Of a DNA stretch of 17,423 nt, positions 2,565 through 17,423 are shown piece after piece. The notes under the pieces were generated by a model. That model searched no databases. It was not told the origin of the DNA and saw only the letters and a list, made by a program, of their open reading frames with translations. The translations under genes and the position numbers were made by a program. Location of the stretch: assembly GCA_041586955.1 (NCBI GenBank), contig JBFGZE010000075.1, forward strand, positions 1 through 17,423. Reading direction: 5' to 3'. How positions within the stretch are numbered: the stretch's first letter is position 1; each line of letters opens with the position of its first letter. This DNA is from Bacteriovoracaceae bacterium. Its GTDB lineage: Bacteria; Bdellovibrionota; Bacteriovoracia; Bacteriovoracales; Bacteriovoracaceae.

Positions 2565-3233
2565 ATGAAATTACTCCTAATGACGATTATCATGCCAATT
2601 TTGGTACTCGTGTGCCCACTTTTTGCAATGCCTCAAGAATTGACCATTAACGTTCACGGCCAGAAACTCCCGGATTATTCATCGATCCTCATCCCTATTA
2701 AATTAACGATTGTTAATAGGCCTGGGATTGTCCAGGCCGCCTCACAGCTGGGCAGTGAATTTAAAAAAATTATCGTTTACCGTGGCCTGACCCCAGACAA
2801 TGCAAATATATGGGTCGATCATAAGAGTTCAAGGGGCGTTCAATCCCAAAAAAGAATTTATAAGGCCTTCCACAACTATATCATTCAACAAAATGAGTAC
2901 CGAGATGATAGTGATGAAGAAGAAAAGGAACATTTAATAGGTCAAGATTATTGTCAGCAAGACTTTCAAGCGGAAGGCGATACATTAGACTTTTTTCTAT
3001 CGCGCTCAGCTATTGATGATATCGATATTAAAATTCAGGCCTATCAAAACTTTTTTAGATCCCTCGACTATACCAGCAAGGGAGAATTGCGTTTACCTTT
3101 AAGAACAATGATTTGCGAGACTTCACCATCAAGTGTTAACTTTTTCCACGGTTTTATTGTCGCCAAAACTCCGCCGCAGAAACCAGACCGTAGTTTTTAT
3201 TTCGTTTTATTAGTGGATACTTACCAAGAATAA
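2565..3233 (+). CDS. Hypothetical exported protein (222 aa) with N-terminal signal peptide
   Basis: Long ORF with AGGTGG RBS. MKLLLMTIIMPILVLVCPLFA resembles a Sec signal. No family recognised. Confidence 0.75.
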   Translation: MKLLLMTIIMPILVLVCPLFAMPQELTINVHGQKLPDYSSILIPIKLTIVNRPGIVQAASQLGSEFKKIIVYRGLTPDNANIWVDHKSSRGVQSQKRIYKAFHNYIIQQNEYRDDSDEEEKEHLIGQDYCQQDFQAEGDTLDFFLSRSAIDDIDIKIQAYQNFFRSLDYTSKGELRLPLRTMICETSPSSVNFFHGFIVAKTPPQKPDRSFYFVLLVDTYQE

Positions 3234-3276
3234 ATTCCTAAATTGGCCCCACAATAAGAACCTGCATAATAAATAT

Positions 3277-3696
3277 TTAGATAGAATAGCGTTTAGAAAT
3301 CCAACGCTTAACCAAAACTCCTAAAATGAGAAAAACCATAAATAATAGCATTTTAGGCCTTAAAGTTACCATATTGACCAATCCAGGACCCGGACAAATT
3401 CCAACCAGGCCCCAGCCGATACCAAAAATAATGGATCCGACAACCAAGGGGGCATCAACTTTGGTGTTTTGCGGTAAAGACATTTCCCCACCACAGACAG
3501 GAGCTTTCCTTTTCATTAAAAAAGGAAAAGTAATAAGATTAACCACCACTGCCCCCCCCATAACGAAGGCCAAGTCCGGGTCCCATTGTCCAAAAATATC
3601 GAGAAAGCCAATGACTTTATTGGGATTAATCATTCCGGAAATAATAAGGCCAATAGAAAATAGGCCACCTGATATAAATGCCGTCAATAATCTCAT
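3277..3696 (-). CDS. YeeE/YedE family sulfur-compound transporter subunit (DUF6691-type half)
   Basis: Hydrophobic protein with GLIISGM.NP.KVIGFLD...WDP.LAFVMGGA and FGIGWGLVGICPGP motifs. AAGGAG RBS spacing favours ATG 3696 over 3699. Confidence 0.9.
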   Translation of the reverse strand: MRLLTAFISGGLFSIGLIISGMINPNKVIGFLDIFGQWDPDLAFVMGGAVVVNLITFPFLMKRKAPVCGGEMSLPQNTKVDAPLVVGSIIFGIGWGLVGICPGPGLVNMVTLRPKMLLFMVFLILGVLVKRWISKRYSI

Positions 3697-3705
3697 CATG
3701 ACTCC

Positions 3706-4107
3706 TTAAAATAATTGCACGATAACGATCCCCGCTATCATAAAAATAATGGTGGCCATAATAGAACGCTTTGATCGCCGCGGAATGCCGCAAACACCGT
3801 GGCCACTGGTGCAGCCCCCCCCCAATCTTGTTCCAACGCCGACTAAAAAACCGCCCAGTCCAATGCGAAAGAAATCCTCATTTAATGAATAATTGAAAAA
3901 TTCAGGGAACCAATTGAGGCCAATAATGGAAGTGATAAAGAGTCCTAATAAAAAGGAGTATTGCCAGTCAATACTTGCAGGGGCCCACTTTAAAGAAGAA
4001 TCCAAAATACCACTTAGTCCCATTATTTTGCCGTTAAAGAGCAATAGTATTGAAGCCGCCACCCCAATTAAAATGCCTCCGAGAAGTGGGTATAGATAGT
4101 TTTCCAT
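3706..4107 (-). CDS. YeeE/YedE family sulfur-compound transporter subunit (N-terminal half)
   Basis: LLGGILIG...NGKIMGLSG and LVGVGTRLGGGCTSGHGVCG...S.RS motifs. Starts 1 bp after the dioxygenase stop. Confidence 0.92.
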   Translation of the reverse strand: MENYLYPLLGGILIGVAASILLLFNGKIMGLSGILDSSLKWAPASIDWQYSFLLGLFITSIIGLNWFPEFFNYSLNEDFFRIGLGGFLVGVGTRLGGGCTSGHGVCGIPRRSKRSIMATIIFMIAGIVIVQLF

Positions 4108-4108
4108 T

Positions 4109-4972
4109 TCAAGACTCCTGTAAGCTCACGGGAATTTTAATATAACTTTGTCCATTACTTTCGCTAGTAGGAAAATGGCCACCATCAATATTGATTTGAA
4201 TCGATGGCAATAATAATCGCGGGGCAGATAGTTCTGCATCACGCTTGGTGCGAAAACTGATAAATTCCTCTCGCGTCGTCTCTGCATTTAAATGAATATT
4301 ATGCGCCTTCTCTTCACCGATAGAACTTTCCCATCTCAACTCGCGTCCACCAGGCCTATAATCGTGCCCAACATAAACTTTAGTTTCATCTGGCAATTTG
4401 TATAATTTCTCGGAAATGGAATCATATAAATCACTCGCTGAACCGTCGGGAAAGTCACAGCGTCCCGTTCCAAAGTCGGGAATAAAAATAGCATCCCCCG
4501 TGAAAAGACAATCCTCGATAAGATAGGAGCTACAGGCCGGCGTATGTCCAGGTGTAGAAAAAACCTTGACTGAGAATTGCCCGATTTCCCAGGTTTCTCC
4601 GTCTTTTAACAAACGGTCAAATTGAGCACCATCTGTTCTCATCTCGCTCAGATTAAAAACATTTTTAAAAGTCTTTTGAACTTTACAAATACCTTCCCCA
4701 ATCCCCACCAGGGCATCAGGATAACGCCTTTTTAATTGGGCCGCTCCAGTTATATGATCGGCATGAGCATGAGTCTCCAAGATTGCACACAGCACCAATT
4801 TTTTATCTTTAAGAAATTGACCCACAGAATTAATGCTGTCCAGCCGGCATGTCGATGGGCCAGAATCATAATTAAGGACAGGATCAATGACAAGGGCATC
4901 CCCTCCCTCTTGCTGGTAAACAATATAGGTAAATGTACTGGTGTCTTTATCAAATAACGCTTCAACCTTCAT
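4109..4972 (-). CDS. MBL-fold persulfide dioxygenase (ETHE1/Sdo/Blh-like)
   Basis: IDPV, ETHAHADH, TPGHTPAC, FTGDAIF.PDFGTGRCDFP, GHDY and C-terminal KRDAELSAPRLLLPSIQIN motifs. GGAGG RBS. Adjacent to the YeeE/YedE pair. Confidence 0.92.
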   Translation of the reverse strand: MKVEALFDKDTSTFTYIVYQQEGGDALVIDPVLNYDSGPSTCRLDSINSVGQFLKDKKLVLCAILETHAHADHITGAAQLKRRYPDALVGIGEGICKVQKTFKNVFNLSEMRTDGAQFDRLLKDGETWEIGQFSVKVFSTPGHTPACSSYLIEDCLFTGDAIFIPDFGTGRCDFPDGSASDLYDSISEKLYKLPDETKVYVGHDYRPGGRELRWESSIGEEKAHNIHLNAETTREEFISFRTKRDAELSAPRLLLPSIQINIDGGHFPTSESNGQSYIKIPVSLQES

Positions 4973-5233
4973 AAATCCTCCGTCAATTCAGCCTATTATG
5001 CCTTAAACGATTCAAGACAGCCAGGCCATTTGCGGCATCGCCGAATAAGTGGATTACGTTTGAGACTATTGATCAAAGTATCAGTCTAAAGGCACTCTAT
5101 GTAAAATTTAACAACGAGTCGCGCCACTCAACCTAATTTAAAGATGTTAACCCCTGCTCGAACAAAGGCCAATATTGTCAAATCCTAGTTGATGGGGTTT
5201 ACCTTAGTCATAGATAATCAATAGGAGTTTATC

Positions 5234-5407
5234 ATGAAAAAACTTATCGCTTTAATTGCTCTTGCGGCCTCTGTTTCGACATTTACCAGTGTTCCTCGTA
5301 GCTTTTGTCTTCGTTTTCTTCCTGACAATTTTCCAGCTTTTAAAGCTTGTATGAATGGTGATTACGATAGTCCTGCTACTCCAGCTGCTCCTGTTTCTGG
5401 CAATTAA
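5234..5407 (+). CDS. Small secreted protein, 57 aa (MKKLIALIALAASVSTFTSVPRSFCLRFLPDNFPAFKACMNGDYDSPATPAAPVSGN)
   Basis: Below the ORF-track cutoff. AGGAG at 5223-5227, typical MKK plus hydrophobic signal sequence, stop at 5405-5407 followed directly by a hairpin. Confidence 0.75.
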   Translation: MKKLIALIALAASVSTFTSVPRSFCLRFLPDNFPAFKACMNGDYDSPATPAAPVSGN

Positions 5408-5413
5408 TTTTTG

Positions 5414-5446
5414 AAAAAGGCTTCTTTTTTAAAGAGAGGCCTTTTT
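5414..5446. terminator. Putative bidirectional intrinsic terminator between convergent genes
   Basis: AAAAAGGCTTCTT pairs with GAGAGGCCTTTTT (two G-U pairs), with A/T tracts at both ends. Overlaps the glycosyltransferase stop codon. Confidence 0.55.
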
Positions 5447-6526
5447 AAAAATATCATCATAAGTTGATATTAATTGACGCCAATCGTAGCGCTCCATCTT
5501 TTCACTTAAAAATATTTCTGGCACACCATCAATTAATAAAGCTTCAAGCTTATCTTCTAATTCCTGCTCTTGCTCATAGAAAAATTGTGGGTACTCTTCG
5601 GAGTTTATATGTTCAGGGTAGGCCAAGCGCTTGGGAAGAATTGGATAAGCTCCTGCATAAATTGCCTCCACCACACTGATTCCAAAAAAATCATGAACAG
5701 AGGTGACAGGAATAATATCGCATTGCCGAAGCCACCAACAATAAGTTTGATAGGACTTGCAATGACCCCATTGGACAATATGATCTTTGAGTCGCTCCTG
5801 GGCCTCTTTAAAAATAGCAGGGTATTTTTTTTGCCCTTGACCTAAAACGACTAACTCAAAAGCGAATCCTTTTTCTTTCATGGTAAATAATAATTCGAAA
5901 AATTGATCAGGGTTTTTATCATGTTCCCAGCGGTGATTCCATAAAATGCGAGGGACACGCCCCTTATGGCGATCGAGAGAAGCAAGTATTCGCAAATCAA
6001 GGCCCAAAGGGAGCACCTGTGACTTGGCAGTAATATCATCGACAATTTCCAATTCTCTATAATCTGGCATAGAGGTCAAAAGCTTCTGCGCCCCCTTCAA
6101 GAAAGTAGAACGATTATACTCACTATTAAAAAGAACCTGCTCAGAGGCGTGCGCGGTGGTGAGGTTTTTAAAGGCGTAATGCTGGTCGCGCTTAAGACGC
6201 ATATCTTCACAACCATCAACCCAGGGATAAGAAAATTGATTTTCATGAAAGTATGTAATGAGAGGAATTTGTTGATAGCGAGGGAGCAAAAGCCCTTTAA
6301 ATGTGGCGACATCGAGCATATCACTGGCGACAAAGAGGTCAATTTTCCCCTTTGACTCATTCACCATTTTAGCGAGAGTCACAGCGCCTCCATAACTACG
6401 CCATTTCCAAAAGCGACCAGGCATAGAAAATAGAGTACTCTCATGCTGACTGAGTTCCATCAATTGATCGAGCCAAGTGAGATGGCTGCCACTATAAAAT
6501 GGTTCTAAAAAAGCTATTTTACTCAT
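5429..6526 (-). CDS. DUF3524 GT-B glycosyltransferase, homologue of GTDC1/QTMAN (tRNA-queuosine alpha-mannosyltransferase family)
   Basis: LEPFYSGSH, MPGRFWKWR, YFHENQFSYP, FNSEYN, ILWNHRWEHDKNP, HDFFGISVVEA and P.RLAYPE motifs. Strong GAGGAGG RBS. Confidence 0.88.
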   Translation of the reverse strand: MSKIAFLEPFYSGSHLTWLDQLMELSQHESTLFSMPGRFWKWRSYGGAVTLAKMVNESKGKIDLFVASDMLDVATFKGLLLPRYQQIPLITYFHENQFSYPWVDGCEDMRLKRDQHYAFKNLTTAHASEQVLFNSEYNRSTFLKGAQKLLTSMPDYRELEIVDDITAKSQVLPLGLDLRILASLDRHKGRVPRILWNHRWEHDKNPDQFFELLFTMKEKGFAFELVVLGQGQKKYPAIFKEAQERLKDHIVQWGHCKSYQTYCWWLRQCDIIPVTSVHDFFGISVVEAIYAGAYPILPKRLAYPEHINSEEYPQFFYEQEQELEDKLEALLIDGVPEIFLSEKMERYDWRQLISTYDDIFKKASL

Positions 6527-6959
6527 GGCCCCTCCTCAGTTTAATCGGCGATCAGCATACCGAATAACCATCACTTGTTAGTTCATACCCAGAAACATGA
6601 ACCTGACATCAAAAAAAGTTATGCACTTTTGGCCATTTTTTTAAAAAGAATGCTAGATTTTTGATCATGATAAAAAAACCACAAGTTAAGTTCAATGCAA
6701 AAACATATGCCTAAAGAAGAGAACCATAGATAAGTCTATTTTTCCAGTGGCGAGAACACATTTCAAAAGCAAAAACACGACATCGATCACGGGTACACTT
6801 CTTTCATAAATATCAACTCTTCCGAAGTTTTGGTTTTAATTATTAGCAGAAACCAGAACCAGACTGAATGGCCATGATATTATTTTATTTCTGATTATTT
6901 TGCCCCGCATATTTCTTTACCACCTATCCCTTTATAATAACGTTAATGGGAGTTTCAAG

Positions 6960-7160
6960 ATGATTCGAATTCTTTTTCTTTTCGCTTTTTTATGTTCTTG
7001 CGCCAATGTCAAACAAATCGACCGCGGTCGCCTCTCCAGTCGCCTGATGCAATTTGACCCCACACCGGAAGAATCTCTCTTTATCAACAAGGTAAACTCC
7101 TACAGAGAAGGCGCAGCAGGCGGTAATGCTGCCGTTGGAGGTGGATGTGGATGCAATTAA
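6960..7160 (+). CDS. DUF4266 family small lipoprotein (66 aa)
   Basis: ATG 6960 with GGGAG RBS. Lipobox-like FLCSC and the diagnostic C-terminal YREGAAGG...GGGCGCN. The ORF-track start at 6900 is too early. Confidence 0.9.
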   Translation: MIRILFLFAFLCSCANVKQIDRGRLSSRLMQFDPTPEESLFINKVNSYREGAAGGNAAVGGGCGCN

Positions 7161-8298
7161 AAGGAAGGTCTTACTTTGTTGTTTACTCATTTTCGGCCAA
7201 AACAGTTGGGCGATCGGAAAGGGTAAGGCCAAGTGGGTGCTTAATTTATATGCACAAAATGGTGACGGAGGTCATCAAATTTTCGATAATTCTAAAAATG
7301 AAGAAGCTTATGCCTTCGAACCCATGCTTTTTGTGGCCTACCAAATCAATAAAAAAACAAATATAAGTGGCCATTTTGTTTTTGATACCTGGACTGCAGC
7401 GAGTGACACCAAATTGGATGAAAGTACTGGTGCGAGTGGAGAGGGGATAAAAAGTCAGTCCAGGACGAGCGGTAGTCTAGCAATATCCAGAGATCATAAG
7501 AGCTGGAGATGGTCCTCTCAATTAGGAGTCTCCAGCGAATATGATTATCGCTCGCTCAACTTTGGAGGTAATCTTCAAAAGAGTTTTGCCCAAGATAATT
7601 TCGTTCTCAGTTTATCTCCACAAATTTACCTTGATCAGGCACGTGACTTTGATATTGCCTCTAATCAAACCCTCAACTTCAAAGGTAGAACCATCTGGTC
7701 AATGGATTTAAGTGGCAGTCAATTATTGACACCCAATGATGTTATTCAAGTCAGCTACACCTTTATTCATATGAATGGCATGCTTAATAATATCTCAAAC
7801 TCAGTTCATGTTTCATCAAATCCCTATAATAATAATTTTTCTCGTTATGACGAACGTTTACCCGATAAGCGATTAAGGCATGCACTTTCATCTAAATTAG
7901 TCCATGCTTTTAATGATGAAAATGCGGGCCATATTTCGTATCGCTATTATGAGGATAATTGGGATATAAATGCTCAAACTGCAGAGCTTGGCCACCGCCT
8001 CAGTTTTAACGATGATAAAAGTTTTCTGATGCTGACTTATCGTTTTTACGATCAAAGTCAAAGTCAGTATTTTAAAGAAAGTTTTCAGGTGGTCGAAACT
8101 CATATGACAAGTGACTCAGACCTAGCAAACTTTACTTCTCACCGCTTTGGTGGCCATTATTCTCATAAGATTGAAGATTCACAAATATTTGGAATGCTAT
8201 TAGCAAATATGGAATGGTCAGCTGCTACCTATTTTTCCTCCAGAAGTAATGGTCTCCAATCCCAAATTCTACAGGCCGGATTGGGAGCGGAGTTTTAA
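7147..8298 (+). CDS. DUF3570 family protein, predicted outer-membrane beta-barrel
   Basis: Overlaps the DUF4266 tail, with a probable GTG start at 7147 after GGAGG. Signal peptide ends ...QNSWA. Motifs DTWTAASD, SSEYDYRS, ERLPDKRLRH, SYRYYEDNWDI, YRFYDQS, TSDSDLANF and a C-terminal Phe. Confidence 0.88.
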   Translation: MDAIKRKVLLCCLLIFGQNSWAIGKGKAKWVLNLYAQNGDGGHQIFDNSKNEEAYAFEPMLFVAYQINKKTNISGHFVFDTWTAASDTKLDESTGASGEGIKSQSRTSGSLAISRDHKSWRWSSQLGVSSEYDYRSLNFGGNLQKSFAQDNFVLSLSPQIYLDQARDFDIASNQTLNFKGRTIWSMDLSGSQLLTPNDVIQVSYTFIHMNGMLNNISNSVHVSSNPYNNNFSRYDERLPDKRLRHALSSKLVHAFNDENAGHISYRYYEDNWDINAQTAELGHRLSFNDDKSFLMLTYRFYDQSQSQYFKESFQVVETHMTSDSDLANFTSHRFGGHYSHKIEDSQIFGMLLANMEWSAATYFSSRSNGLQSQILQAGLGAEF

Positions 8299-8655
8299 AT
8301 GAGTGATCATTTGGTTCTCATTAAAGAAAAGCATAGGGATTGTAAATTTTCTATTCAATGCTCCCCCTCTTATGTAGCACAGAGCAAGTTAAAGAGATCA
8401 TTCAATAAGATTTTCAGGAAATCGCGCGAATCGAAAATTTATGTACCGTTTTTCGCTTTGGACCATTCAATGAAGTTAATAATCACGCTGGAATATAACC
8501 CATCCAAGTGAATGACGAATTATTTAGGTTAATCCAAAAAGCACAATGATATTCAAAAGTATCACTAGGCATTGTTGATATTAATTATGCATCTGTTGGC
8601 CAATTATGGCGACAAGCAAAGTCTTAAGGGACTTGGGGGAATAAGAAAAGGCCTT
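8299..8655 (+). pseudogene. apbE: Degenerate FAD:protein FMN transferase (ApbE): frameshifted, multiple stops, internally deleted
   Basis: ATG 8299 directly follows the DUF3570 stop. After a frameshift near 8365-8372 the frame reads EQVKEIIQ*DFQEIARIENLCTVFRFGPFNEVNNHAGI*PIQVNDELFRLIQKAQ*YSKVSLGIVDINYASVGQLWRQAKS*, with stops at 8406, 8496, 8547 and 8625. This matches the ApbE N-terminal pattern. GLGGIRKG at 8629-8652 matches the ApbE LGGI.KG motif. Confidence 0.8.
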
Positions 8656-8745
8656 AGGAATTGCAGATCTGCCACAAACTATTCTATTGGGTAAAGATGG
8701 CAAATCAAATTTCAAGGAATTAGGCCCTTCCAAAAACGCTTGAAT
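8648..8745 (+). pseudogene. C-terminal remnant of a TlpA/thioredoxin-like gene
   Basis: KALGIADLPQTILLGKDGK then, after a frameshift, KFQGIRP. This resembles the cis-Pro 'G+..+P.T.L+d.dG.I' end of TlpA proteins. No CxxC half is present. Confidence 0.55.
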
Positions 8746-8758
8746 AATTCCTTTTCTA

Positions 8759-9184
8759 TTATTTTAATAATTGCGGGAGGGTTATTATTTTTTTTGAAAT
8801 TTCATCCCGTACGCGACGATAAACATTAAGGATTTCCTCTTCGTCGAGCATCTCTTGAGTCAAGCGTGGGGGATCATCAAACCCCATATGAATAATTTTC
8901 CCTCCTGGAAAGAGAGGGCACGTTTCATGAGCATCTGAGCAAACTGTAATGACATAATCAAAATGAATTTTCGGCAATTCATCTACGGTTTTTGATTCTT
9001 GAGAAGATATATCGATCCCTATTTCCTGCATCACTTGAACGGCCCTTGAATTCAGCCCATGCTTTTTAATTCCTGCAGAATAGGCATTAAATTGATCAGA
9101 CAAGTGATGACGGCAAATCCCCTCGCTCATCTGTGAACGGCATGAGTTCCCTGTGCATAAAAATAATATATTTTTTTTATTCAT
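8759..9184 (-). CDS. arsC: Thioredoxin-coupled arsenate reductase ArsC (LMW-PTP fold)
   Basis: P-loop C10-TGNSCRSQM, redox cysteines C82 (ITVC) and C89 (ETCP), FDDP motif. Confidence 0.88.
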   Translation of the reverse strand: MNKKNILFLCTGNSCRSQMSEGICRHHLSDQFNAYSAGIKKHGLNSRAVQVMQEIGIDISSQESKTVDELPKIHFDYVITVCSDAHETCPLFPGGKIIHMGFDDPPRLTQEMLDEEEILNVYRRVRDEISKKIITLPQLLK

Positions 9185-9192
9185 TGGTACTC

Positions 9193-11436
9193 CTACTCAT
9201 GATCACTTAATTGACGAGAATCAAAGGACGAAATGATAGGTGAAACTTTTCCAGCGTAGAGTACCCATAATTGGTGAATGGCGCGAGTGGCAGCGAGATG
9301 CAACCTTTTACGCGCACGAGGAGTATCTGGGTAGGCACTATGGTCACCATCGGGAATGATCACATAATCAAACTCCAGACCGCGAATTTGTTCGACAGTC
9401 GTGACATCTATACCTGGCCTAAAAGTAAAATCTGCATCTTCAACTAAACGCACCTGCCCTAAGTCTTTCAAACGCGAATAAAAATTGCGCGCAGTTTCCA
9501 TTTTTGAGCATATAATCGCGATTGATGCCTTTGGTTCGCGAATAATAAGATCATCTAAGGTATCAAATAAAATAATAGAACCGTGGGCCATATGCTGAAT
9601 TTGATTGAGACGGACCGGTGCCCCTTGCCTTGGGCTGGTAGGCATGGGGCCTGAAATTAAATCCCCAAGACAATTATGGGCGAATTCGACAATTGATTGT
9701 GGCGACCGATAGGAAATGGTCAACTCATTGGCACTCACGCCTTTAATATCTAAGTGCCCTAATAATTGTTCCCATGAAGAAAAACTAATACTCTCATCCA
9801 CCTGTTGAGCGGCATCACCAGCAATCGTAAAGGTTCCCTGAGGGTGAAGACCCTCTTTAAAGGCCATCAATTCCACCGGTGCCAACTCTTGCGCTTCATC
9901 AATGACCATATGGCGGTATTTTTTAATATGGCCTTTTGCTGTTCTGGAACCATTCGTTTTCAACTTTAATAAGTAGATAAGTAAGGAATGGTCTTCCAAA
10001 TCAATGGTATTATGAATAGCAAAGGCCGAGCCATCATCTGCACTCTGACCATCCAAAGTGGTATGGCCGTCATCTGATTGAGCATGTAATTGGCGAGCGG
10101 AATGAAGAAAGGTTGTTTCAACCATACGCTCGGTGATCACCCCATCACTTAATAAGCATGCTTTTTTTAACCGCTTGCGATTCGTCAAAATACTGCGTAA
10201 ATCGGTTAGAACATCGAAGACAATATTTTTTTCTTCATTTACTTTTATCTTCTGGATCGCTGTCAAAGGAATTTCTCTTTCTATCTTTTCAATACGCTCT
10301 AAAATAGAAAGTTCTGAATATTGACGAAAACACTCTCCAAGATGATGATCCCGAGACAAACGGTCCAAGCGCGAGGCGATCTCATCAATTTGCTCATTAA
10401 TATATTCCTGACATATCTTGAGAAAACAAAGGTGCCTTTTTAGAAGACTCGTCCCCAACGGGGTCGCCAAACAAATTCTTCTGGGGATACCAGGAAAGAG
10501 ACGTTCGGCCTGTTGCTGAATCCAATTCTCTCCAATTTTGATGCGCACCCGTTTAAGGCCAATCTTTTTTAATAATTCCTCGGATAAATGAATAAGACCT
10601 TTATGGGGAACAATAACCAAAACATCATGGGGCATCAGTTTTTTACGCTTACATAGCGTTGCAATGCGATGTAGAGCGACTGTGGTTTTCCCTGAACCAG
10701 CACCGCCAATAATAAGAAGCGGTTCTTTAAAACTGCGGTTCAATAGCTCGTATTGGGTATGATCTAGAAGACCGACAACTTCTGGTCCTTTAAAATTTGT
10801 CAGTCCCGTGCCAAAGGTTAGGTCACGACATGCACTACCTTGGCCACCGCCTAATTTAATATTTTCCTCTTCCAAACTGGTCCAGCGATCTTTGATTTTG
10901 ACAAAAGATTGACCATTACGATCCACACGTATCAATTTTTCATTTTCGATCGTAAGAATACTTAATTCGTGAACCACTCCTTCAAGTTCATTATCCCCTA
11001 TATCAATGTCGTAATCATCGCCTTCCCCATATTGATAAAAGACTTGCGAGATGGGTGCCTTTTTCCAATCCACAATACGAATATTATTTTTACCATCTAA
11101 AAAACTCACATGCCCTAGAAAAATATGTTTCTTGCGTTCATTTTCCAATAAGCACATATGGCCAAAATAAGGCGAATGCGTGTCAGGCAATGGTTCGGGT
11201 TGTGATAATTTTGATGCCAGGGAATATTGAAGATTTAATTGGTGATAGAGACCGGGTAAATCATCGGGCTTAGCATCTTTTATCTCTTCTTTTAATTGGC
11301 GGATATTATCGGCAATTTCTTTTAAATCGATGGGATTATCATTCGTTTTTAGGCGAATACTTTGAACAATATTGGCCAAGAATCTTTCCTGTCCCTCAAG
11401 GTATATAAGATCATTGTCACCAATCACAGTGCTCAT
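9193..11436 (-). CDS. HelD-like / UvrD-family superfamily 1 helicase-like ATPase (747 aa)
   Basis: HelD-type N-terminus (SPYFGHM...IVDWKKAPISQVFY), Walker A GGAGSGKTTVALHRIA, Walker B IDEAQE, AGDAAQ, LTISYRSP, RGLEFD and LAATRA motifs. Confidence 0.85.
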   Translation of the reverse strand: MSTVIGDNDLIYLEGQERFLANIVQSIRLKTNDNPIDLKEIADNIRQLKEEIKDAKPDDLPGLYHQLNLQYSLASKLSQPEPLPDTHSPYFGHMCLLENERKKHIFLGHVSFLDGKNNIRIVDWKKAPISQVFYQYGEGDDYDIDIGDNELEGVVHELSILTIENEKLIRVDRNGQSFVKIKDRWTSLEEENIKLGGGQGSACRDLTFGTGLTNFKGPEVVGLLDHTQYELLNRSFKEPLLIIGGAGSGKTTVALHRIATLCKRKKLMPHDVLVIVPHKGLIHLSEELLKKIGLKRVRIKIGENWIQQQAERLFPGIPRRICLATPLGTSLLKRHLCFLKICQEYINEQIDEIASRLDRLSRDHHLGECFRQYSELSILERIEKIEREIPLTAIQKIKVNEEKNIVFDVLTDLRSILTNRKRLKKACLLSDGVITERMVETTFLHSARQLHAQSDDGHTTLDGQSADDGSAFAIHNTIDLEDHSLLIYLLKLKTNGSRTAKGHIKKYRHMVIDEAQELAPVELMAFKEGLHPQGTFTIAGDAAQQVDESISFSSWEQLLGHLDIKGVSANELTISYRSPQSIVEFAHNCLGDLISGPMPTSPRQGAPVRLNQIQHMAHGSIILFDTLDDLIIREPKASIAIICSKMETARNFYSRLKDLGQVRLVEDADFTFRPGIDVTTVEQIRGLEFDYVIIPDGDHSAYPDTPRARKRLHLAATRAIHQLWVLYAGKVSPIISSFDSRQLSDHE

Positions 11437-11466
11437 TAAATGGAACTCCCTAAAAATAATTAGAAA

Positions 11467-11504
11467 CTTATAAGAGAATTTCTAGGGGCTCGCAAGGAAA
11501 TTCT
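11467..11504 (-). promoter_or_regulatory. Putative sigma70 promoter for the helD-like/arsC operon with an overlapping inverted repeat
   Basis: Minus strand TTGCGA (11495-11490), 17 nt, TATAAG (11472-11467). Inverted repeat AGAATTTC (11475-11482) / GAAATTCT (11497-11504) brackets the -35 element. Confidence 0.4.
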
Positions 11505-11605
11505 ATAAACAATCAAAATTATTAGTAAAAATGGCAATTTTCATTACTCTTTGATGCCACACAAAGCTGGAATAAATGAAGTTTTATTGATACTCTTCTC
11601 GGTCT

Positions 11606-12937
11606 ATGAAGGCCATAAAAAGTAATAATGTTCTTATTAATTCTAAGTTAGTTCCCGCCTGCTTGATTATTCAAGATGGCCTCATTGACGATATCATTCT
11701 AGACACCCCCGCAGGGTTTCAGGGAGAAATTATTGATATGGGTGACTTAGTCGTCATGCCAGGCATTATAGATACTCATGTTCATATCAATGAACCAGGT
11801 CGAACTGAATGGGAAGGCTTCAATACGGCCACCAAGGCGGCTGCAGCAGGAGGAATTACTACTGTTGTCGATATGCCTCTCAATTGTATCCCCGCCACCA
11901 CAACCAAAAAAGCGCTTCAGGAGAAAGTTGAAGCGGTTCAAGGCCAATTATGGGTAGACGTTGGCTTTTGGGGTGGCGCTGTTCCCGACCAAATTGACCA
12001 GCTTGACCAATTACTCAAGGCCGGAGTTATGGGCGTAAAGTCCTTTCTTATAGATTCAGGCGTTCCAGAATTTCAAATGATGACTGAAGCGGACCTCCAT
12101 AAGGCCATGCCAATAATCGCCGCGAATCAATTGCCTTACCTTATTCACGCTGAAATTGACGACGGCCACCAAGAAGAAGTCACAGGAGTGTATCAGACTT
12201 TTCTCAATAGCCGTCCTCGTCACTGGGAAAATGATGCGATTAGCTTGATGATCGCTCTCACCGAAAAATACCGTACTAAAACTCATATTGTTCATTTATC
12301 TAGCTCCGATGCCCTTGAACGCATTCAAAGGGCCAAGGAACAGGGACTTTCCTTCACCGTGGAAACCTGTCCCCACTACTTAACGTTGGCCTCCGAAACA
12401 ATTAAGGATGGCCAAACTATTTTTAAATGCTGCCCGCCAATTAGGGAAGAAGATAACCGCCAGGCCTTATGGGAAGGCGTAAAGTCTGGCATTATCGATT
12501 TTATTGTCTCTGACCATTCCCCTTGTACGCCTCAATTAAAATTGATTAAGCAAGGTGATCTTGACAAGGCTTGGGGCGGAATTTCTTCCCTCCAATTTTC
12601 ACTTTCCCTCGTATGGACGGAGGCCAGAAAAAAAGGACTCTCCATCGGCGATCTCTCCCGCTTAATGAGTGAGCAGACGGCCCAATTCATAGGTATCGAT
12701 CATTTGAAAGGTACTATTGCGAAAGGAAAACAAGCTGACCTTGTCGTTTGGAACCCTGAAGAAAAGTTTACGATTTCACCAGATCTTATCCAACACCGCC
12801 ATAAAGTGACACCCTATGAGGGTAAAATGGTCTATGGAAAAGTACATGCCACCTTACTAAAAGGTGATTTTATTTTTCAAGAAAATCATTACCAAGGGCC
12901 AAAAGGCTCTCTCCTATTAAGAGGTCAAAATGTCTGA
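11606..12937 (+). CDS. allB: Allantoinase (metal-dependent amidohydrolase, AllB/DAL1 type)
   Basis: DTHVHINEPGRTEWEGF, AAAGGITTVVDMPLN, GVKSF, IHAE, HIVHLSS, VETCPHYL, FKCCPPIR, SDHSPC and AWGGIS motifs. Purine-catabolism context. Confidence 0.95.
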   Translation: MKAIKSNNVLINSKLVPACLIIQDGLIDDIILDTPAGFQGEIIDMGDLVVMPGIIDTHVHINEPGRTEWEGFNTATKAAAAGGITTVVDMPLNCIPATTTKKALQEKVEAVQGQLWVDVGFWGGAVPDQIDQLDQLLKAGVMGVKSFLIDSGVPEFQMMTEADLHKAMPIIAANQLPYLIHAEIDDGHQEEVTGVYQTFLNSRPRHWENDAISLMIALTEKYRTKTHIVHLSSSDALERIQRAKEQGLSFTVETCPHYLTLASETIKDGQTIFKCCPPIREEDNRQALWEGVKSGIIDFIVSDHSPCTPQLKLIKQGDLDKAWGGISSLQFSLSLVWTEARKKGLSIGDLSRLMSEQTAQFIGIDHLKGTIAKGKQADLVVWNPEEKFTISPDLIQHRHKVTPYEGKMVYGKVHATLLKGDFIFQENHYQGPKGSLLLRGQNV

Positions 12938-13949
12938 AGTTATAATCAAGGCCACGGAGCATAATTCAATATACTCCGACCAATACATCAACCTCGCGGC
13001 CGAGCGTCTTGGAACAAAAGTGCTCTTTAGCACAGATGATTTTTTTGCCCCTAAAGAAAATCTTATCAAGCCTGGTCGCGGCATCTTTATTGTGGATAAA
13101 TATACAGAAAACGGCAAATGGATGGACGGCTGGGAATCGAGACGCAAGAGGGTCGCCGGTCATGATTACGCCGATATTCGCTTAGGACTTCCTGGCGTCA
13201 TTAAGGCGATCGATATCGATACGAATTTTTTCACCGGTAACCACCCACCCTTTGCTTCTATTGAGGCCTGCTCTTGCCACAATAGTGATCCTAACGAACA
13301 AACTGAGTGGACAGAAATCTTAGCAAAATCCGCCTTAGGCCCTGGTTGCCAAAATCTTTTTGATATTAATAACAAGCAAATGTTTACTCATATCCGCCTC
13401 CATATTTATCCTGATGGCGGTGTCGCTCGTCTTCGTATTTATGGAGAGGTTAAAAAGGATTGGTCTCAAGTGGGCCAGGACGATATCATTGATTTGGCCG
13501 CTGTCGAAAATGAAGGAAAGGCCGTCATTTGTAATGATATGTATTTCTCGCATAAAGATAATATTAATATGCCTGGGCGAGGCATCAATATGGGTGATGG
13601 CTGGGAAACCAAACGCAAAAGAGAACCTGGTAATGATTGGCTTATCCTAGCGCTCGGGAAAAAAGGCCATATATCACAAGTAATCGTAGACACCGCCCAT
13701 TTTAAAGGTAATTTCCCTGATAGCTGCTCTTTAGAAGGAGCGTTATTAGAAGAAGGCCAAGTCGATCAATTAGAAGATCCCCAAATTGAGTGGAAACCAT
13801 TATTACCTCAAGTGAAATTACAAGCTGACCATATCCACGACCTCTCATCACAATTAATTCATATTGGCGCTATTACTCATGTGCGCTTGCAAATTTATCC
13901 TGATGGGGGTGTCAGCCGGTTGCGATTATTTGGCAAAATAAGCGAGTAA
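12930..13949 (+). CDS. alc: Allantoicase
   Basis: Two allantoicase repeats: MDGWESRRKR/MGDGWETKRKR, DT.FFTGN/DTAHFKGN and IYPDGGVARLR/IYPDGGVSRLR. Overlaps allB by 8 bp. Confidence 0.96.
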   Translation: MSEVIIKATEHNSIYSDQYINLAAERLGTKVLFSTDDFFAPKENLIKPGRGIFIVDKYTENGKWMDGWESRRKRVAGHDYADIRLGLPGVIKAIDIDTNFFTGNHPPFASIEACSCHNSDPNEQTEWTEILAKSALGPGCQNLFDINNKQMFTHIRLHIYPDGGVARLRIYGEVKKDWSQVGQDDIIDLAAVENEGKAVICNDMYFSHKDNINMPGRGINMGDGWETKRKREPGNDWLILALGKKGHISQVIVDTAHFKGNFPDSCSLEGALLEEGQVDQLEDPQIEWKPLLPQVKLQADHIHDLSSQLIHIGAITHVRLQIYPDGGVSRLRLFGKISE

Positions 13950-13952
13950 GTA

Positions 13953-14462
13953 ATGACTCTAAAAGAACTCAATGAAATTCCAAGAGAAGAATTTTTAGCA
14001 AAGATGATGACCTGTTGTACTAGTACAAACTGGGGCCAATTAATGGAGGCATCGCGACCTTTTAGCGATCAAAAGCAACTTAAAGACAAGGCATTGGCCC
14101 ATTGGCAAACCCTTACCAAAAATGATTTTCTAGAGGCCTTTGATGGCCATCCAAAGATTGGTGACGTGACCTCATTGAAAATGAAATATGCCAATACCAA
14201 GGATCTCGCCAGTAATGAACAAAGTGGCGTCAACCACGCTAGTGACACTATTATTGAAGAATTGGCGGTTTATAACCAAACCTATGAACGCCGTTATGGA
14301 TTTATTTTTATTGTCTGCGCCACAGGAAAGAGTGCGGAAGAAATGCTCGCAATTTTGAAAGAACGTATAAATAATGAACCTAACGACGAATTACAGATTG
14401 CCGCTCGCGAGCAAGCAAAAATCACAAATATTCGTTTGGAGAAATTATTATGTCACCCATAA
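13953..14462 (+). CDS. uraD: OHCU decarboxylase
   Basis: EAFDGHPKIG, ASNEQSG, YERRYGFIFIVCATGKS and EQAKITNIRL motifs. Confidence 0.95.
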   Translation: MTLKELNEIPREEFLAKMMTCCTSTNWGQLMEASRPFSDQKQLKDKALAHWQTLTKNDFLEAFDGHPKIGDVTSLKMKYANTKDLASNEQSGVNHASDTIIEELAVYNQTYERRYGFIFIVCATGKSAEEMLAILKERINNEPNDELQIAAREQAKITNIRLEKLLCHP

Positions 14463-14800
14463 CCACTCATATTCTCGATACAGAGGCCGGAAAACCTGCA
14501 AAAGGAGTGATTACCACTCTCGAACTCATGAGCTCTCATAATGAGTTCCAAAAAATAGGTACTGGTATGACTGACGGTGATGGACGTATTAAGGACTTAT
14601 TGTCAGATACCCATTCGCTTGTCCCTGGTATTTACCGTCTCACTTTTCAAATCAAGTCCTATTTTGAAAAAATGGAACGCAAAAGCTTTTACCCTCTTGC
14701 CCAAATTGTTTTTGAAATAGAAGAAGGTAAAACAGAGGAACACTATCACGTCCCTCTCCTTTTAAGTGGTCACGGCCATACAACTTATAGAGGGAGCTAA
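14450..14800 (+). CDS. uraH: 5-hydroxyisourate hydrolase (transthyretin-like, no signal peptide)
   Basis: ITTHILD, TDGDGRI, FYP, HYHVPLLLS and the C-terminal YRGS signature. Overlaps uraD by 13 bp. Confidence 0.96.
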   Translation: MSPITTHILDTEAGKPAKGVITTLELMSSHNEFQKIGTGMTDGDGRIKDLLSDTHSLVPGIYRLTFQIKSYFEKMERKSFYPLAQIVFEIEEGKTEEHYHVPLLLSGHGHTTYRGS

Positions 14801-14813
14801 CACCCACTCATTT

Positions 14814-16445
14814 TTATTTAAACTCAAAGTCAATAACTTCATCTTGGCCATCAAGATGAATGGTTTTGGTCACAGCTCCTAATTTTTCATGCCACGCTTC
14901 AACGATATATTGACCAGAGGGAACACCCTTTAAATGAAAGGTACCATTACCTTTGGTCACATCGAAATAAGGATGATCAACAACGGCAATATGTCCCCCC
15001 ATCCAAGGATGAACTGAGCATTTAGTCATGACCGTAATCTCAGGTTTGCTAAAGACCTTCACGATTTTTCTTTTCTTGGCCGGCATGGGGTCATTAAATT
15101 TGCGGTTTAACTGAGTGATGGCCTTAACGTTATGAAAAATAGGATCACTATTGAGAATATGGACAGGGCGATTCACGCGTGTCCCAATAACGCGAGGTTT
15201 ATAAAGGCAGCCAATTTGATCTAAAACGACAGGTGTTTGATCTACTGGTGGCAACAGTTCTCGATCGACCCCTTTGGTAATACGAACCAAGGCATTTTTA
15301 AGTAGGCCTTTATCCACTAATAATGAATTGTCAAAGGCCCCATTAGCGTGCTGGACAGCACAGGCCTTCGGCAAGCGTAACCTTTTAGGGGCAGGAACAT
15401 TCCCATCAAAACGGACAATACCCTTAATAGAATAGCGAGTCGCCTCCGTACCAGTAGAAACTTTCTCTTTAACTGGCGCTCCTTGCTCACCCTTATGTTC
15501 AACGGAATTATTTTGTGAGACCTCTGCCAAAGGAGTGCTATCCTGTTGAGTCATAAACACGGCCGCTACAATAAAGGCCACTCCAAAAAGAATAAAGCGA
15601 TAAAGAGACCTACCCTTTTTATGTTTGACGTTAAAGAAATGACGAATGAGTGCTCCTGATAAGGAAATGATAATGAGGACAAACCAATTTTGTTCGTGCC
15701 CATAAGTGGCAGGAAAATGATTGGAAATCATAATAAAAAGCAGCCCGAGGGTGAAATAATTATTATGGGTTGAGCGGTTTTTTGCATTGACACCCCAATT
15801 TTGGTTCACGGGTCGTCCCAACTTCGATTCTTCAATCATCTTGGCCTGACGAGGGAGAATTCGAACCCAGACATTTCCAACCATCCATGTGCCGATGATC
15901 GCGGCAACGTGGTAATAGGCAGCTCTTCCGCTCAATGTCTGACAAAGTAAGTAAGTGATGCCGCAAAAATAACTGACCGTTAATAAATGCGCTAAATAAG
16001 TCGATTCGGCCAAAGCTGATTCCCACAAAAGATCATAAAAAATCCATGAAACGACAATCGAGGTAATAGACAGAGAAACTGCGGTGCCAAAGGAAATGTC
16101 CGAAATGGTTTCATCTAAAAGAAAGGTACCATTACCGCTATAAAAGATGAGTCCTAAAAGAAGTATTCCAGTTAGCCAGGTAAAGGCGGCTTCCCAGCGG
16201 AACCAATGGAGATGCTTAGGTACCTCGTTAGGACCAATTAAGAGTTTTTGAACATGGTAAAAACCACCTCCATGTACCATATGGAGGTCTCCCACATGAC
16301 CCTCTTCGGGTTTTTTATCAGGACGCGGAATAAAGCTAGCATCCAACCACATAAAAAAGAAAGATTCACCAATCCAACAAACTCCTGTAATAATATGTAG
16401 CCAGCGAACCGTTAATAAAAGCCAATCGTAGAGATTCTCACCCAT
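14814..16445 (-). CDS. puuD: Membrane urate oxidase/hydroxylase PuuD (DUF989) domain, aa 1-~298, fused to a C-terminal cupredoxin-like / carboxypeptidase-regulatory-like domain instead of cytochrome c
   Basis: RWLHIITGVCWIG.SFFF.WLD, MVHGGGFY, LHWFRWEA..TWLTG, SGRAAY.HV, M..NV..RILP.Q, RSTHNNYFTL..LFIMISNH and IRHFFN motifs. No CxxCH anywhere in the protein. C-terminal LDQIGCLYKPRV, NSDPIFHNV, KCSVHPWM and YIVEAWHE motifs. Confidence 0.92.
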   Translation of the reverse strand: MGENLYDWLLLTVRWLHIITGVCWIGESFFFMWLDASFIPRPDKKPEEGHVGDLHMVHGGGFYHVQKLLIGPNEVPKHLHWFRWEAAFTWLTGILLLGLIFYSGNGTFLLDETISDISFGTAVSLSITSIVVSWIFYDLLWESALAESTYLAHLLTVSYFCGITYLLCQTLSGRAAYYHVAAIIGTWMVGNVWVRILPRQAKMIEESKLGRPVNQNWGVNAKNRSTHNNYFTLGLLFIMISNHFPATYGHEQNWFVLIIISLSGALIRHFFNVKHKKGRSLYRFILFGVAFIVAAVFMTQQDSTPLAEVSQNNSVEHKGEQGAPVKEKVSTGTEATRYSIKGIVRFDGNVPAPKRLRLPKACAVQHANGAFDNSLLVDKGLLKNALVRITKGVDRELLPPVDQTPVVLDQIGCLYKPRVIGTRVNRPVHILNSDPIFHNVKAITQLNRKFNDPMPAKKRKIVKVFSKPEITVMTKCSVHPWMGGHIAVVDHPYFDVTKGNGTFHLKGVPSGQYIVEAWHEKLGAVTKTIHLDGQDEVIDFEFK

Positions 16446-16477
16446 TTTCCACTTACCTTTTTAAACTTTAGCCTAAT

Positions 16478-16506
16478 AAAATAGCCCATGCAGATGGGCC
16501 TGCCAA
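16478..16506 (-). promoter_or_regulatory. Candidate puuD promoter with a palindrome filling the spacer
   Basis: Minus strand TTGGCA, 17 nt, TATTTT. The spacer contains GCCCAT-N4-ATGGGC (16484-16499). Confidence 0.3.
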
Positions 16507-16593
16507 GAATAAATCCGCTTTGGCACTACGCTCTCCTCACAAATAAGAAATAGGTGATATAATGCTGTAGGAATATTACTTGAGATCCTTAAA

Positions 16594-16890
16594 ATGGCAC
16601 GACTGAAAACAAGAGACCTTTATCAAATAAATGGCAACTGCGGTATTTGTGGTCACCGTATTTTAAGGTTAAAGCACGCCAATATAGACCATATTATCCC
16701 TAAAAGTCAGGGTGGCGGTGATTATGATCATAATCTGCAAATAAGTCATCGCTGGTGTAATCAGGTAAAAGGCAATCTCCGCAGAGACCAAACTTTTAAA
16801 CCCACTTTTGCATGGAATATTAAGATGATGGCCCTTTTTGAGATGGGTCTTTTATCTTTTGGGCACGATCATAAAAGGCCACCCTCTTAA
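16594..16890 (+). CDS. Small stand-alone HNH endonuclease-domain protein
   Basis: CGICG...IDHIIPKSQGG...NLQISHRWCNQVKG, with a CxxC/HxxC zinc site and the HNH core. Confidence 0.85.
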   Translation: MARLKTRDLYQINGNCGICGHRILRLKHANIDHIIPKSQGGGDYDHNLQISHRWCNQVKGNLRRDQTFKPTFAWNIKMMALFEMGLLSFGHDHKRPPS

Positions 16891-17017
16891 TTCGCTCCTT
16901 CTCGCAGGAGGCTAACCACCTAATTTTACAATCATAATAACGAATTTTAGGTAAATAGTGGGGCCATTAGCTTAAATAAATATATATAAATCAATAAAAA
17001 AGCCGATAGGAAGGTGG

Positions 17018-17423
17018 ATGAAGAATTCTAAAAAGCACCTTTCTATTTCGAATAAATTTGGTTTTATGGCCGGGTCCATGGTGCTACTTATTTTCATTAA
17101 TTTAGGAACCCAATTTTATACAAAAAAAGTTAACGATAAATTAGAAGCAATAGAACATTATTCAATGGAATCAGTTCAGGTTGCCAATCGCCTTAATGTC
17201 GCCATGTATGAGATGCTTGTCGATCACAAAGATCGCTTTGATGATTCTTACACTCTGCAAGTCAAGAATGATACGGAAAGACTGGACCACCTCCACCGGA
17301 CGATCTCCTTTTATATTAATAAATATCAAAATTATTGGTGGCTCCAAGATCAAAAAAACTTTTCTGGTTATGGATATAGATGGAAGGAACATTTATTACC
17401 TAGATTAAAGCATATCATCAAAG
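17018..17423 (+). CDS. N-terminus of a membrane-bound sensor (histidine kinase or chemoreceptor-like); runs off the right edge
   Basis: Open frame from ATG 17018 after AGGAAGGTGG. MKNSKKHLSISNKFGFMAGSMVLLIFINLG gives an S-I-x-x-K start and a TM helix, followed by a helical extracytoplasmic segment. The output domain is not in the window. Confidence 0.65.
   Translation, partial: MKNSKKHLSISNKFGFMAGSMVLLIFINLGTQFYTKKVNDKLEAIEHYSMESVQVANRLNVAMYEMLVDHKDRFDDSYTLQVKNDTERLDHLHRTISFYINKYQNYWWLQDQKNFSGYGYRWKEHLLPRLKHIIK

Follow-up and report, generated by a model that had tools for sequence, protein, structure and literature searches.

We propose that a Bacteriovoracaceae bacterium encodes a membrane urate oxidase of the PuuD family in which a type-1 (blue) copper centre takes the place of haem c as the periplasmic one-electron carrier. 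The gene was found on contig JBFGZE010000075.1 of assembly GCA_041586955.1, of which positions 1 to 17,423 (17,423 nucleotides [nt], here called the window) were analysed. It occupies 14814..16445 on the minus strand, as do all features of the protein given below, and the open reading frame (ORF) list and translation give 543 amino acids (aa) plus a stop codon. On the evidence of sequence comparison and structure prediction, we give this reading a probability of about 0.8. An earlier note, made from the letters of this DNA, had suggested such a haem-to-copper swap, and every element of the suggestion that could be checked by computation held.

The comparison that gives the finding its meaning is with PuuD of Agrobacterium fabrum (Doniselli et al. 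2015, PMC4562309). As the earlier note had stated, this characterised enzyme joins a DUF989 membrane domain to a C-terminal cytochrome c, and its description states that the cytochrome c, with its CXXCH motif, is invariant in PuuD. We observed no CxxCH in the window protein or in any of the 120 relatives listed in a whole-protein search. What follows its membrane domain is, instead, a module of about 200 residues with a cupredoxin core.

The membrane domain of PuuD is complete

Residues 5-298 (15552..16433) matched the Pfam family Urate_ox_N (DUF989, PF06181) with an expect value (E) of 1.2e-102 and 343.8 bits against a cut-off of 26.9. The match covers profile positions 3-293 of 295, so it is full length as well as above the gathering score, and it confirms the complete PuuD membrane domain that the earlier note had placed at aa 1 to ~298. 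An NCBIfam scan found no model matching the 543-aa ORF. The membrane part is 36% identical to that of a classical cytochrome c PuuD from Pseudoalteromonas.

Topology was read from hydropathy peaks and a positive-inside count, together with the helices of an AlphaFold2 model of the full-length protein. That model has a mean predicted local distance difference test score (pLDDT) of 81.5 and a predicted template modelling score (pTM) of 0.74, and its beta module is well predicted from aa 337. Eight hydropathy peaks in the membrane part are paralleled by eight long helices in the model. Lysine and arginine residues are distributed very unevenly: 16 lie on the loops that follow transmembrane helices (TM) 1, 3, 5 and 7, but the N-terminus and the loops behind TM2, 4 and 6 have 1 between them. 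TM8 (aa ~283-301, 15543..15599) has the strongest hydropathy peak, 2.9, and extends partly past the Pfam match; the corresponding helix of the model spans residues 278-299, and the charge count puts the C-terminus that follows it outside. We conclude that the membrane part is predicted to be N-out/C-out, with the C-terminal module in the periplasm, as the earlier note had expected. The same orientation is given for published PuuD, for which the A. fabrum study places loops I-II and V-VI in the cytoplasm and the C-terminal domain outside (PMC4562309).

Five histidines, H17, H58, H179, H227 and H243, are common to the membrane domains of copper-type and cytochrome c-type PuuD. The predicted topology places H58 and H227 near the cytoplasmic face and H17, H179 and H243 near the periplasmic face. 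Solved relatives of the membrane domain did not turn up: phmmer returned 0 matches at E<=10, a profile of fused PuuD matched nothing in the Protein Data Bank (PDB) over positions 1-300, and the matches that Foldseek listed for the full-length model were all to cupredoxin-fold proteins. The ESM Atlas gave no usable look-alike outside PF06181. A copper importer of the CopC-CopD kind was considered and rejected, as Pfam matches to the membrane domain at E<=10 consisted of Urate_ox_N and noise, with no CopD.

The tail carries a putative type-1 copper site

A polar, variable linker (aa ~302-336, 15438..15542) joins the membrane domain to the module. The earlier note had given it ~40 aa; a linker is indeed there, and it is disordered in the full-length model (pLDDT<50 at aa 304-332), but it is nearer 35 aa long, with the module starting at about aa 337. 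Across 47 aligned full-length relatives, its length varies from 30 to 63 residues between aa 301 and 347. Mean majority-residue conservation in the same alignment falls from 0.78 in the membrane part to 0.25 in the linker, its lowest value, and is 0.67 in the module.

The module itself (aa 337-543, ~207 aa, 14817..15437) was delimited by AlphaFold2 and by its homologues. Folded separately, as a 208-aa tail with 62 stand-alone relatives, it gave an all-beta model with a pLDDT of 96.8 and a pTM of 0.92, which bears out the ~205-aa beta-rich tail described before. Regular expressions run on the translation located HNV at 438 and CSVHPWM at 476-482, both as reported in the earlier note, and found no CxxCH anywhere. 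Could such a motif arise by chance? Among 200,000 shuffles of the 208-aa tail, C..H..M occurred in 400 and its combination with an upstream HN in 68.

Profile searches placed these residues in a known fold. Against the PDB, a single-sequence search gave only a weak hint (5fc9 at E=0.1). A profile of the module, in contrast, reached 9cck at 5.6e-7, 5fc9 at 1.6e-6 and amicyanins from 1.4e-5, and a profile of fused PuuD alone reached 5fc9 at 3.3e-6. The copper proteins fell at positions 404-493 of the fused-PuuD profile, where residues 14-104 of the amicyanin chain align, and the cupredoxin core is accordingly drawn at aa ~400-490 (14976..15248) from the profile and Foldseek results. In hidden Markov model alignments to amicyanin, 5fc9 and 9cck, H438, C476, H479 and M482 stand in the ligand columns, in the order His...Cys-xn-His-xn-Met; the earlier note's comparison with amicyanin is upheld by this placement. 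H438-N439 (15132..15137), the first proposed ligand and the Asn after it, aligns with the His of amicyanin PHNVH, and the loop C476-S-V-H479-P-W-M482 (15000..15020) aligns with amicyanin C-x2-H-x2-M and with CTLHPWM of 9cck.

The predicted structure agrees. Foldseek returned 68 PDB matches to the tail model at E<=1e-3, and those listed are all cupredoxin-fold: NirK 6hbe, amicyanins, Nitrosopumilus 5fc9, plastocyanins, pseudoazurins and CuA models. The tail model superposes on plastocyanin as a Greek-key fold, with a TMt of 0.75 and a root-mean-square deviation (rmsd) of 1.9 A for 7pcy and a TMt of 0.79 for 1bxu. The full-length model had 52 matches, among them the amicyanins 3ie9 and 3ply at an rmsd of 2.0 A over 85-86 columns.

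Conservation was measured in 383 proteins, which together contain 389 modules. Of these modules, 382 keep the H-C-H-M quartet, and the single positions are nearly invariant: H438 in 387, N439 in 380, C476 in 387, H479 in 388, W481 in 388 and M482 in 383. In the 47 full-length relatives, H438, N439, C476, H479, P480, W481, M482, C362, C413 and W518-H519-E520 do not vary at all, and the four ligands together with C362 and C413 are also invariant in 63 module sequences. We conclude that the tail holds a putative type-1 copper site with H438, C476, H479 and M482 as its predicted ligands.

The cupredoxin is part of a larger composite module

The earlier note had taken the whole tail for a cupredoxin. 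Profile and fold support a cupredoxin core, but the tail is modelled as more than that. Behind the core, residues 491-543 (14817..14975) resemble a CarboxypepD_reg beta-sandwich, as judged from Pfam PF13620 and from PDB profile matches. In the window protein, PF13620 matched aa 492-541 with 19-21 bits, under the cut-off of 32.3 and over profile positions 29-80 only, so neither the gathering score nor the whole domain was reached. Four of five relatives scanned did exceed the cut-off (P0016, P0022, P0058 and P0056, at 34.0-35.3 bits), with P0003 below it at 30.1 bits; the CarboxypepD_reg matches in relatives begin only at profile position 13-33. The module profile also matched the sandwiches of NOMO2 and EMC7 over its last ~50 residues. 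D-H491-P and W518-H519-E520 are conserved in this part.

Where, then, are the first strands of the sandwich? In the models, the N-terminal part of the module (aa 337-399, 15249..15437) consists of a first strand at 337-346, a short helix with C362 and a strand at 386-391. Since the Pfam matches miss the first ~13-30 positions and the module opens with the strands 337-346 and 386-391, these may well be the missing ones. The cupredoxin would then be nested in, or packed against, a sandwich to which both ends of the module contribute. We conclude from the models that the tail is a composite of ~200 aa, a cupredoxin core plus a CarboxypepD_reg-like sandwich, and not a plain cupredoxin.

The protein has six cysteines (23, 161, 168, 362, 413 and 476), the last three of them in the tail. 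C362 (15360..15362) and C413 (15207..15209), which the earlier note had picked out as a possible disulfide, are both present. The pair is C/C in 384 of the 389 modules and S/S in 2, and is kept or lost jointly. Because both cysteines are lost together, a disulfide fits, and C362-C413 probably staples the module.

The copper-type fusion is common in Bdellovibrionota

The whole-protein search scored 8000 candidates and found 2357 proteins at E<=1e-3, of which 120, the query included, were listed. The 119 others are 47-61% identical to the query. All 120 cover 96-100% of it, measure 529-582 aa and have the C..H..M motif, and the listed relatives carry PF06181 with CarboxypepD_reg-type domains. 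Their automatic names are 'uncharacterized membrane protein/plastocyanin' at JGI and 'urate hydroxylase PuuD' at NCBI, the latter including Bdellovibrio sp. HCB337, HCB2-146 and several metagenome-assembled genomes (MAGs).

We also scanned 185,579 species genomes, which yielded 380 relatives, and analysed the best 80 of these 380 loci. The tail follows the membrane domain in frame in all 80, and for Bdellovibrio sp. HCB337 and Peredibacter sp. HCB2-198 the chromosome that carries the fusion is complete. The ligand loop was found in 73 of the 75 ORFs recovered from these loci; the other 2 are cut by contig ends. By record title, the 76 copper-type locus rows used for a tree comprise 70 Bdellovibrionota (45 Bacteriovoracia, 20 Bdellovibrionales and 4 Oligoflexia), 3 Pseudomonadota and 1 each of Myxococcota, Acidobacteriota and Planctomycetota; L043, L064, L066 and L070, missed by the ORF filter, were left out. 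The copper-type fusion is thus common, not rare, and is typical of predatory Bdellovibrionota.

Classical PuuD proteins on plasmids of Alpha- and Gammaproteobacteria match only aa 1 to ~300-350 of the window protein, at 35-40% identity. None of 257 such plasmid records reached >=80% query coverage, and CxxCH was present in all six classical plasmid proteins inspected. These six, all from plasmids, were combined with 77 copper-type rows in a tree built with IQ-TREE (quick, LG+G4) from the membrane domain only. The two types separate on one branch with an SH-aLRT of 99, for a sample of 6 cytochrome c rows. The window PuuD and the copy of a Planctomycetota MAG (L057) fall outside the clade of the other 75, again with a support of 99. 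As the two loci also have the same urate-pathway genes around puuD, the bacterium that carries the window may lie outside Bdellovibrionota; none of the listed relatives exceeds 61% identity. Because the cytochrome c sample is small and plasmid-only, the tree does not fix the number or direction of the swaps.

The module belongs to a large family with other redox fusions

The tail was compared with 1.84 billion cluster representatives. Clusters with the module, defined at 50% identity, numbered 10,248 at E<=1e-3; tightening the threshold to 1e-10 left 4856, and to 1e-30 left 475. Most match the module end to end, and most of the best 150 are proteins of 230-300 aa. These short relatives are named 'plastocyanin' by JGI and 'carboxypeptidase regulatory-like domain-containing protein' by NCBI, so the stand-alone proteins that the earlier note had mentioned do exist; one ESM Atlas cluster is named 'Methylamine utilization protein family'. 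The names are automatic annotation, and we found no characterised member of the stand-alone family. The ligand loop is present in 117 of 118 short relatives. By eye, 7 of 11 stand-alone N-termini showed a signal sequence with a lipobox-like Cys. Because stand-alone forms carry such lipobox-type signals, the module would be extracytoplasmic elsewhere too.

Pfam annotation of 37 longer representatives identified 17 as Urate_ox_N fusions. Among the others, the module lies N-terminal to COX2_TM and COX2, that is, to cytochrome oxidase subunit II (CoxII), in P0197; behind a pyrroloquinoline quinone propeller (PQQ_2) in P0188; at the end of a multihaem cytochrome of 1805 aa with 8 CxxCH motifs in P0219; and after a sulfatase fragment in P0269. 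Fusion to CoxII is not confined to P0197: of the 120 relatives listed for it, 66 cover at least 91% of it, 55 have the module loop upstream of the CuA motif, and some are cytochrome c oxidase subunit II of Candidatus Omnitrophica MAGs. The module-CoxII proteins are the copper equivalent of a subunit II that carries a fused cytochrome c. Partners such as CoxII, a PQQ propeller and a multihaem cytochrome lend independent support to an electron-transfer role for the module's family, and the earlier note's view that the PuuD fusion points that way is strengthened by these comparisons.

A distant stand-alone module is encoded on pSymA of Sinorhizobium meliloti (L081:6044-7615). It is 29% identical and keeps H/C/H/M. 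Its gene adjoins one for a SCO-family protein, and genes for a cbb3 oxidase, hemA and groEL are near. A connection with mau clusters was tried and rejected: no mau cluster surrounds a Caballeronia plasmid gene that bears the name 'methylamine utilization protein'. Two papers on MauL make no mention of the module domain. The module may be related to MauL of methylotrophs.

A wider interpretation would make the module a very large, uncharacterised class of membrane-tethered blue-copper carriers that do the work of cytochrome c in aerobic chains, among others those of Bdellovibrionota, Omnitrophota and Acidobacteriota, either free or fused to their donors or acceptor. PuuD, the PQQ propeller and the multihaem cytochrome may be donors in such a scheme, and cytochrome oxidase subunit II may be the acceptor. 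We consider the odds of this interpretation to be even.

A proposed route for the electrons and its alternatives

How might a copper-type PuuD work? The DUF989 domain with its eight helices would oxidize urate to 5-hydroxyisourate at its cytoplasmic face, and the electrons would cross that domain. Candidate cofactor ligands for the crossing, as a matter of speculation, are H58 and H227 toward the cytoplasm and H17, H179 and H243 toward the periplasm. Copper held by H438, C476, H479 and M482, in an amicyanin-like cupredoxin on the flexible ~35-aa linker, would then accept the electrons and pass them to a periplasmic or membrane acceptor. A terminal oxidase is the most likely acceptor, because the module is fused elsewhere to the oxidase subunit through which electrons enter. 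The product would be handled by the hydroxyisourate (HIU) hydrolase, the OHCU (2-oxo-4-hydroxy-4-carboxy-5-ureidoimidazoline) decarboxylase, the allantoinase and the allantoicase of the adjacent genes. Inferred in this scheme are the binding of copper, the disulfide bond, the path through the membrane, and where and in which direction the electrons go.

The biochemical background comes from A. fabrum. There, the use of urate depends on PuuD, and the mutant can be rescued with a cytosolic urate oxidase; cells with wild-type PuuD showed no rise in catalase, unlike those with an oxidase that forms H2O2, and the authors propose electron transfer via the cytochrome c (PMC4562309).

Several observations weigh against the proposed reading. 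The link to respiration is unproven even for the cytochrome c enzyme, for which the same study reports no specific inhibition by azide and discusses superoxide scavenging (PMC4562309). In NirK, an N-terminal cupredoxin extension is reported to lie too far from the catalytic core and to be possibly off-path (PMC4770552). Pfam Copper-bind (PF00127) did not match the window protein even at E<=10; in 2 of 5 relatives scanned it gave E values of 0.019 and 0.029 (15-16 bits, against a cut-off of 21.2), so the cupredoxin homology is visible only with family-specific profiles. H519 (388 of 389 modules), H491 (368 of 389) and W481 are conserved about as well as the ligands and have no assigned role. 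Lastly, the SCO-family gene beside the distant S. meliloti homologue also fits copper handling. As a separate observation, H519, H491 and W481 could form a second site or an electron-exit patch; the S. meliloti homologue lacks H491 and H519 and has the H/C/H/M quartet.

Perhaps a true copper centre delivers electrons to the membrane domain, as for a hydroxylase needing reducing equivalents, or scavenges superoxide? NCBI does name the relatives 'urate hydroxylase PuuD', the azide result and the superoxide proposal for A. fabrum PuuD leave room for such roles (PMC4562309), and no computed result fixes the direction of electron flow. However, wild-type PuuD oxidized urate with no rise in catalase, and the same authors favour transfer through the cytochrome. 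Moreover, the proposed active site is cytoplasmic and the module periplasmic, and in many proteins the module is fused to the electron-entry subunit of an oxidase, the site expected of an oxidase donor. We regard this explanation as improbable, though it survives best of those considered.

Slightly less probable still is that the module handles copper, serving as chaperone or delivering the metal to a copper site, be it that of the membrane domain or that of an oxidase. The neighbours of the S. meliloti gene, a SCO-family protein and the cbb3 oxidase genes, would suit such a task, and the CoxII fusion can be read as an assembly aid. Yet the ligand set and spacing are those of electron-transfer cupredoxins, down to the Asn after the first His, and the best structural matches are amicyanin, plastocyanin and pseudoazurin. 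In PuuD, the module takes the place of cytochrome c, a pure electron carrier, at the same position, and the membrane domain has no CopD-like match (Pfam, E<=10).

A metal-free beta-sandwich with a structural or binding function and a coincidental motif is very improbable. It would explain why the only Pfam matches on the tail are to CarboxypepD_reg-type families and why NCBI calls the stand-alone relatives 'carboxypeptidase regulatory-like domain-containing protein'. But CarboxypepD_reg spans only the last ~50 residues, and the profiles match solved copper proteins with an E near 1e-6. Coincidence accords poorly with the 382 of 389 modules that keep the quartet, or with the 68 of 200,000 shuffles that had both parts of the motif. 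That an assembly or gene-calling artefact has joined two genes has a negligible probability, and an assembly chimera is ruled out, given the identical architecture at similar length in all 120 listed relatives, the in-frame tail in the best 80 of 380 loci, complete chromosomes included, and a GC content that is even across the domain junction (0.41-0.43). We therefore retain the copper-centred urate oxidase as the preferred reading.

The urate gene cluster and other features of the window

Four plus-strand genes of urate breakdown adjoin puuD, and all four products score above NCBIfam equivalog cut-offs. The HIU hydrolase (14450..14800; TIGR02962, 127.2 bits, cut-off 87.45) is convergent with puuD, and the two stop codons are 13 nt apart. 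The OHCU decarboxylase (13953..14462; TIGR03180, 172.8 bits, cut-off 139.4) precedes it, so that both enzymes are encoded within 900 nt of puuD. Allantoicase (12930..13949; TIGR02961, 449.1 bits, cut-off 277.9) and an AllB-type allantoinase (11606..12937; TIGR03178, 550.6 bits, cut-off 357.85) complete the set.

Among the best 80 of 380 loci, HIU hydrolase adjoins puuD in 73, and the 7 misses end at or just after puuD; 64 of the loci contain an allantoicase-like sequence and 35 an OHCU decarboxylase. The gene set closest to that of the window is that of the Planctomycetota MAG L057, with neighbours 53-56% identical. There, puuD is first in a co-directional operon of puuD, allantoinase, allantoicase/OHCU decarboxylase and HIU hydrolase. 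At L057:10044-11570 and 11971-13419 we observed allantoicase and OHCU decarboxylase fused into one protein of 508 aa and a DUF6986 gene after the HIU hydrolase gene.

In Bdellovibrio sp. HCB337 (L002:8962-13662) and Halobacteriovorax marinus (L033:9030-13757), an ORF of ~1570 aa follows puuD and the HIU hydrolase gene. It joins malate synthase, OHCU decarboxylase, beta-lactamase-like hydrolase and allantoicase domains and, from these domains, looks like a purine-ring-to-malate multi-enzyme. In HCB337, it is followed by an ORF for a PuuE-like polysaccharide deacetylase.

Elsewhere in the window, a 98-aa stand-alone HNH endonuclease ORF (16594-16890, plus strand) lies just upstream of puuD on the opposite strand and has weak similarity to the HNH of IscB/Cas9 models. 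At 3277-4972 (minus strand), a Blh-like persulfide dioxygenase of the metallo-beta-lactamase fold precedes two short ORFs, which correspond to the two halves of a YeeE/YedE-type sulfur transporter (Sulf_transp, DUF6691). The ORFs at 5429-6526 and 8759-11436 (both minus strand) include a glycosyltransferase with a tRNA-queuosine mannosyltransferase N-terminal domain (QTMAN_N, E=9e-56), a thioredoxin-type ArsC and a 747-aa HelD-like helicase. Scanned against Rfam, the window gave a single microRNA match, at chance level. Promoter-like sites were at shuffle level (15 vs 13.4), and terminator-like sites were above it (16 vs 5.9).

Relation to known systems and significance

The window protein resembles A. 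fabrum PuuD (PMC4562309) in several respects: both have Urate_ox_N, eight helices and a C-terminal domain outside, both have a variable linker followed by a small one-electron redox domain, and both are encoded near HIU hydrolase and OHCU decarboxylase. Its membrane part is 35-40% identical to classical PuuD. It differs in having no CxxCH and no cytochrome c, in its tail of ~200 aa, predicted to combine a cupredoxin and a sandwich, and in its own branch of the tree.

Like amicyanin, plastocyanin, pseudoazurin and 5fc9, the tail is predicted to be periplasmic, has the His (then Asn) and C-x2-H-x2-M columns and superposes on them with TMt values of about 0.7-0.79. Amicyanin, from Paracoccus, is the type-1 copper acceptor of methylamine dehydrogenase. 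Unlike such cupredoxins, to which it is ~20% identical, the tail has Trp for Phe in the loop, two extra invariant cysteines and further conserved histidines, and it is a larger module with a sandwich and a covalent fusion to its presumed electron donor. The stand-alone 'carboxypeptidase regulatory-like', 'plastocyanin' or 'methylamine utilization protein' sequences (~230-270 aa) align with it end to end at 33-47% identity and share its invariant residues; they are anchored by a signal sequence or lipid, and not by a PuuD membrane domain.

Fused carriers are also known from caa3-type oxidases, in which the carrier is attached to subunit II, and haem and copper carriers replace each other in the exchange of plastocyanin and cytochrome c6. 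NirK, too, occurs with C-terminal cytochrome c or N-terminal cupredoxin extensions (PMC4770552). As in copper-type PuuD, the one-electron partner is a fused domain with interchangeable haem and copper versions, whereas the catalytic domain is a different one and the extra cupredoxin of NirK is possibly off-path.

In agreement with the earlier note, which knew of no description of this fusion, full-text searches, with most subscription journals outside their coverage, found no literature on a PuuD with a copper or cupredoxin domain or on the module. The architecture is visible in databases, in hundreds of sequences and under JGI's 'plastocyanin' label, but uninterpreted.

These data correct the published description of PuuD, in which cytochrome c is obligatory, as a whole clade has a copper-type domain. 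Because two chemically unrelated carriers share the same position, the periplasmic domain of PuuD is expected to have a generic one-electron role. Haem c and type-1 copper share only outer-sphere one-electron transfer; a haem-specific role is therefore argued against. The haem/copper exchange also gives a direct way to test the still unproven electron-transfer step of PuuD. A copper version has no need for cytochrome c maturation and could ease heterologous expression of an H2O2-free urate oxidase. For the very large 'carboxypeptidase regulatory-like'/'plastocyanin' family, copper-type PuuD supplies a first functional anchor, with which the recurring CoxII fusion agrees. If the module is indeed a general class of blue-copper carriers, copper-type PuuD would wire purine breakdown directly to respiration through copper, and it would serve as an experiment of nature from which the periplasmic domain of PuuD emerges as a plain relay for outer-sphere electron transfer.

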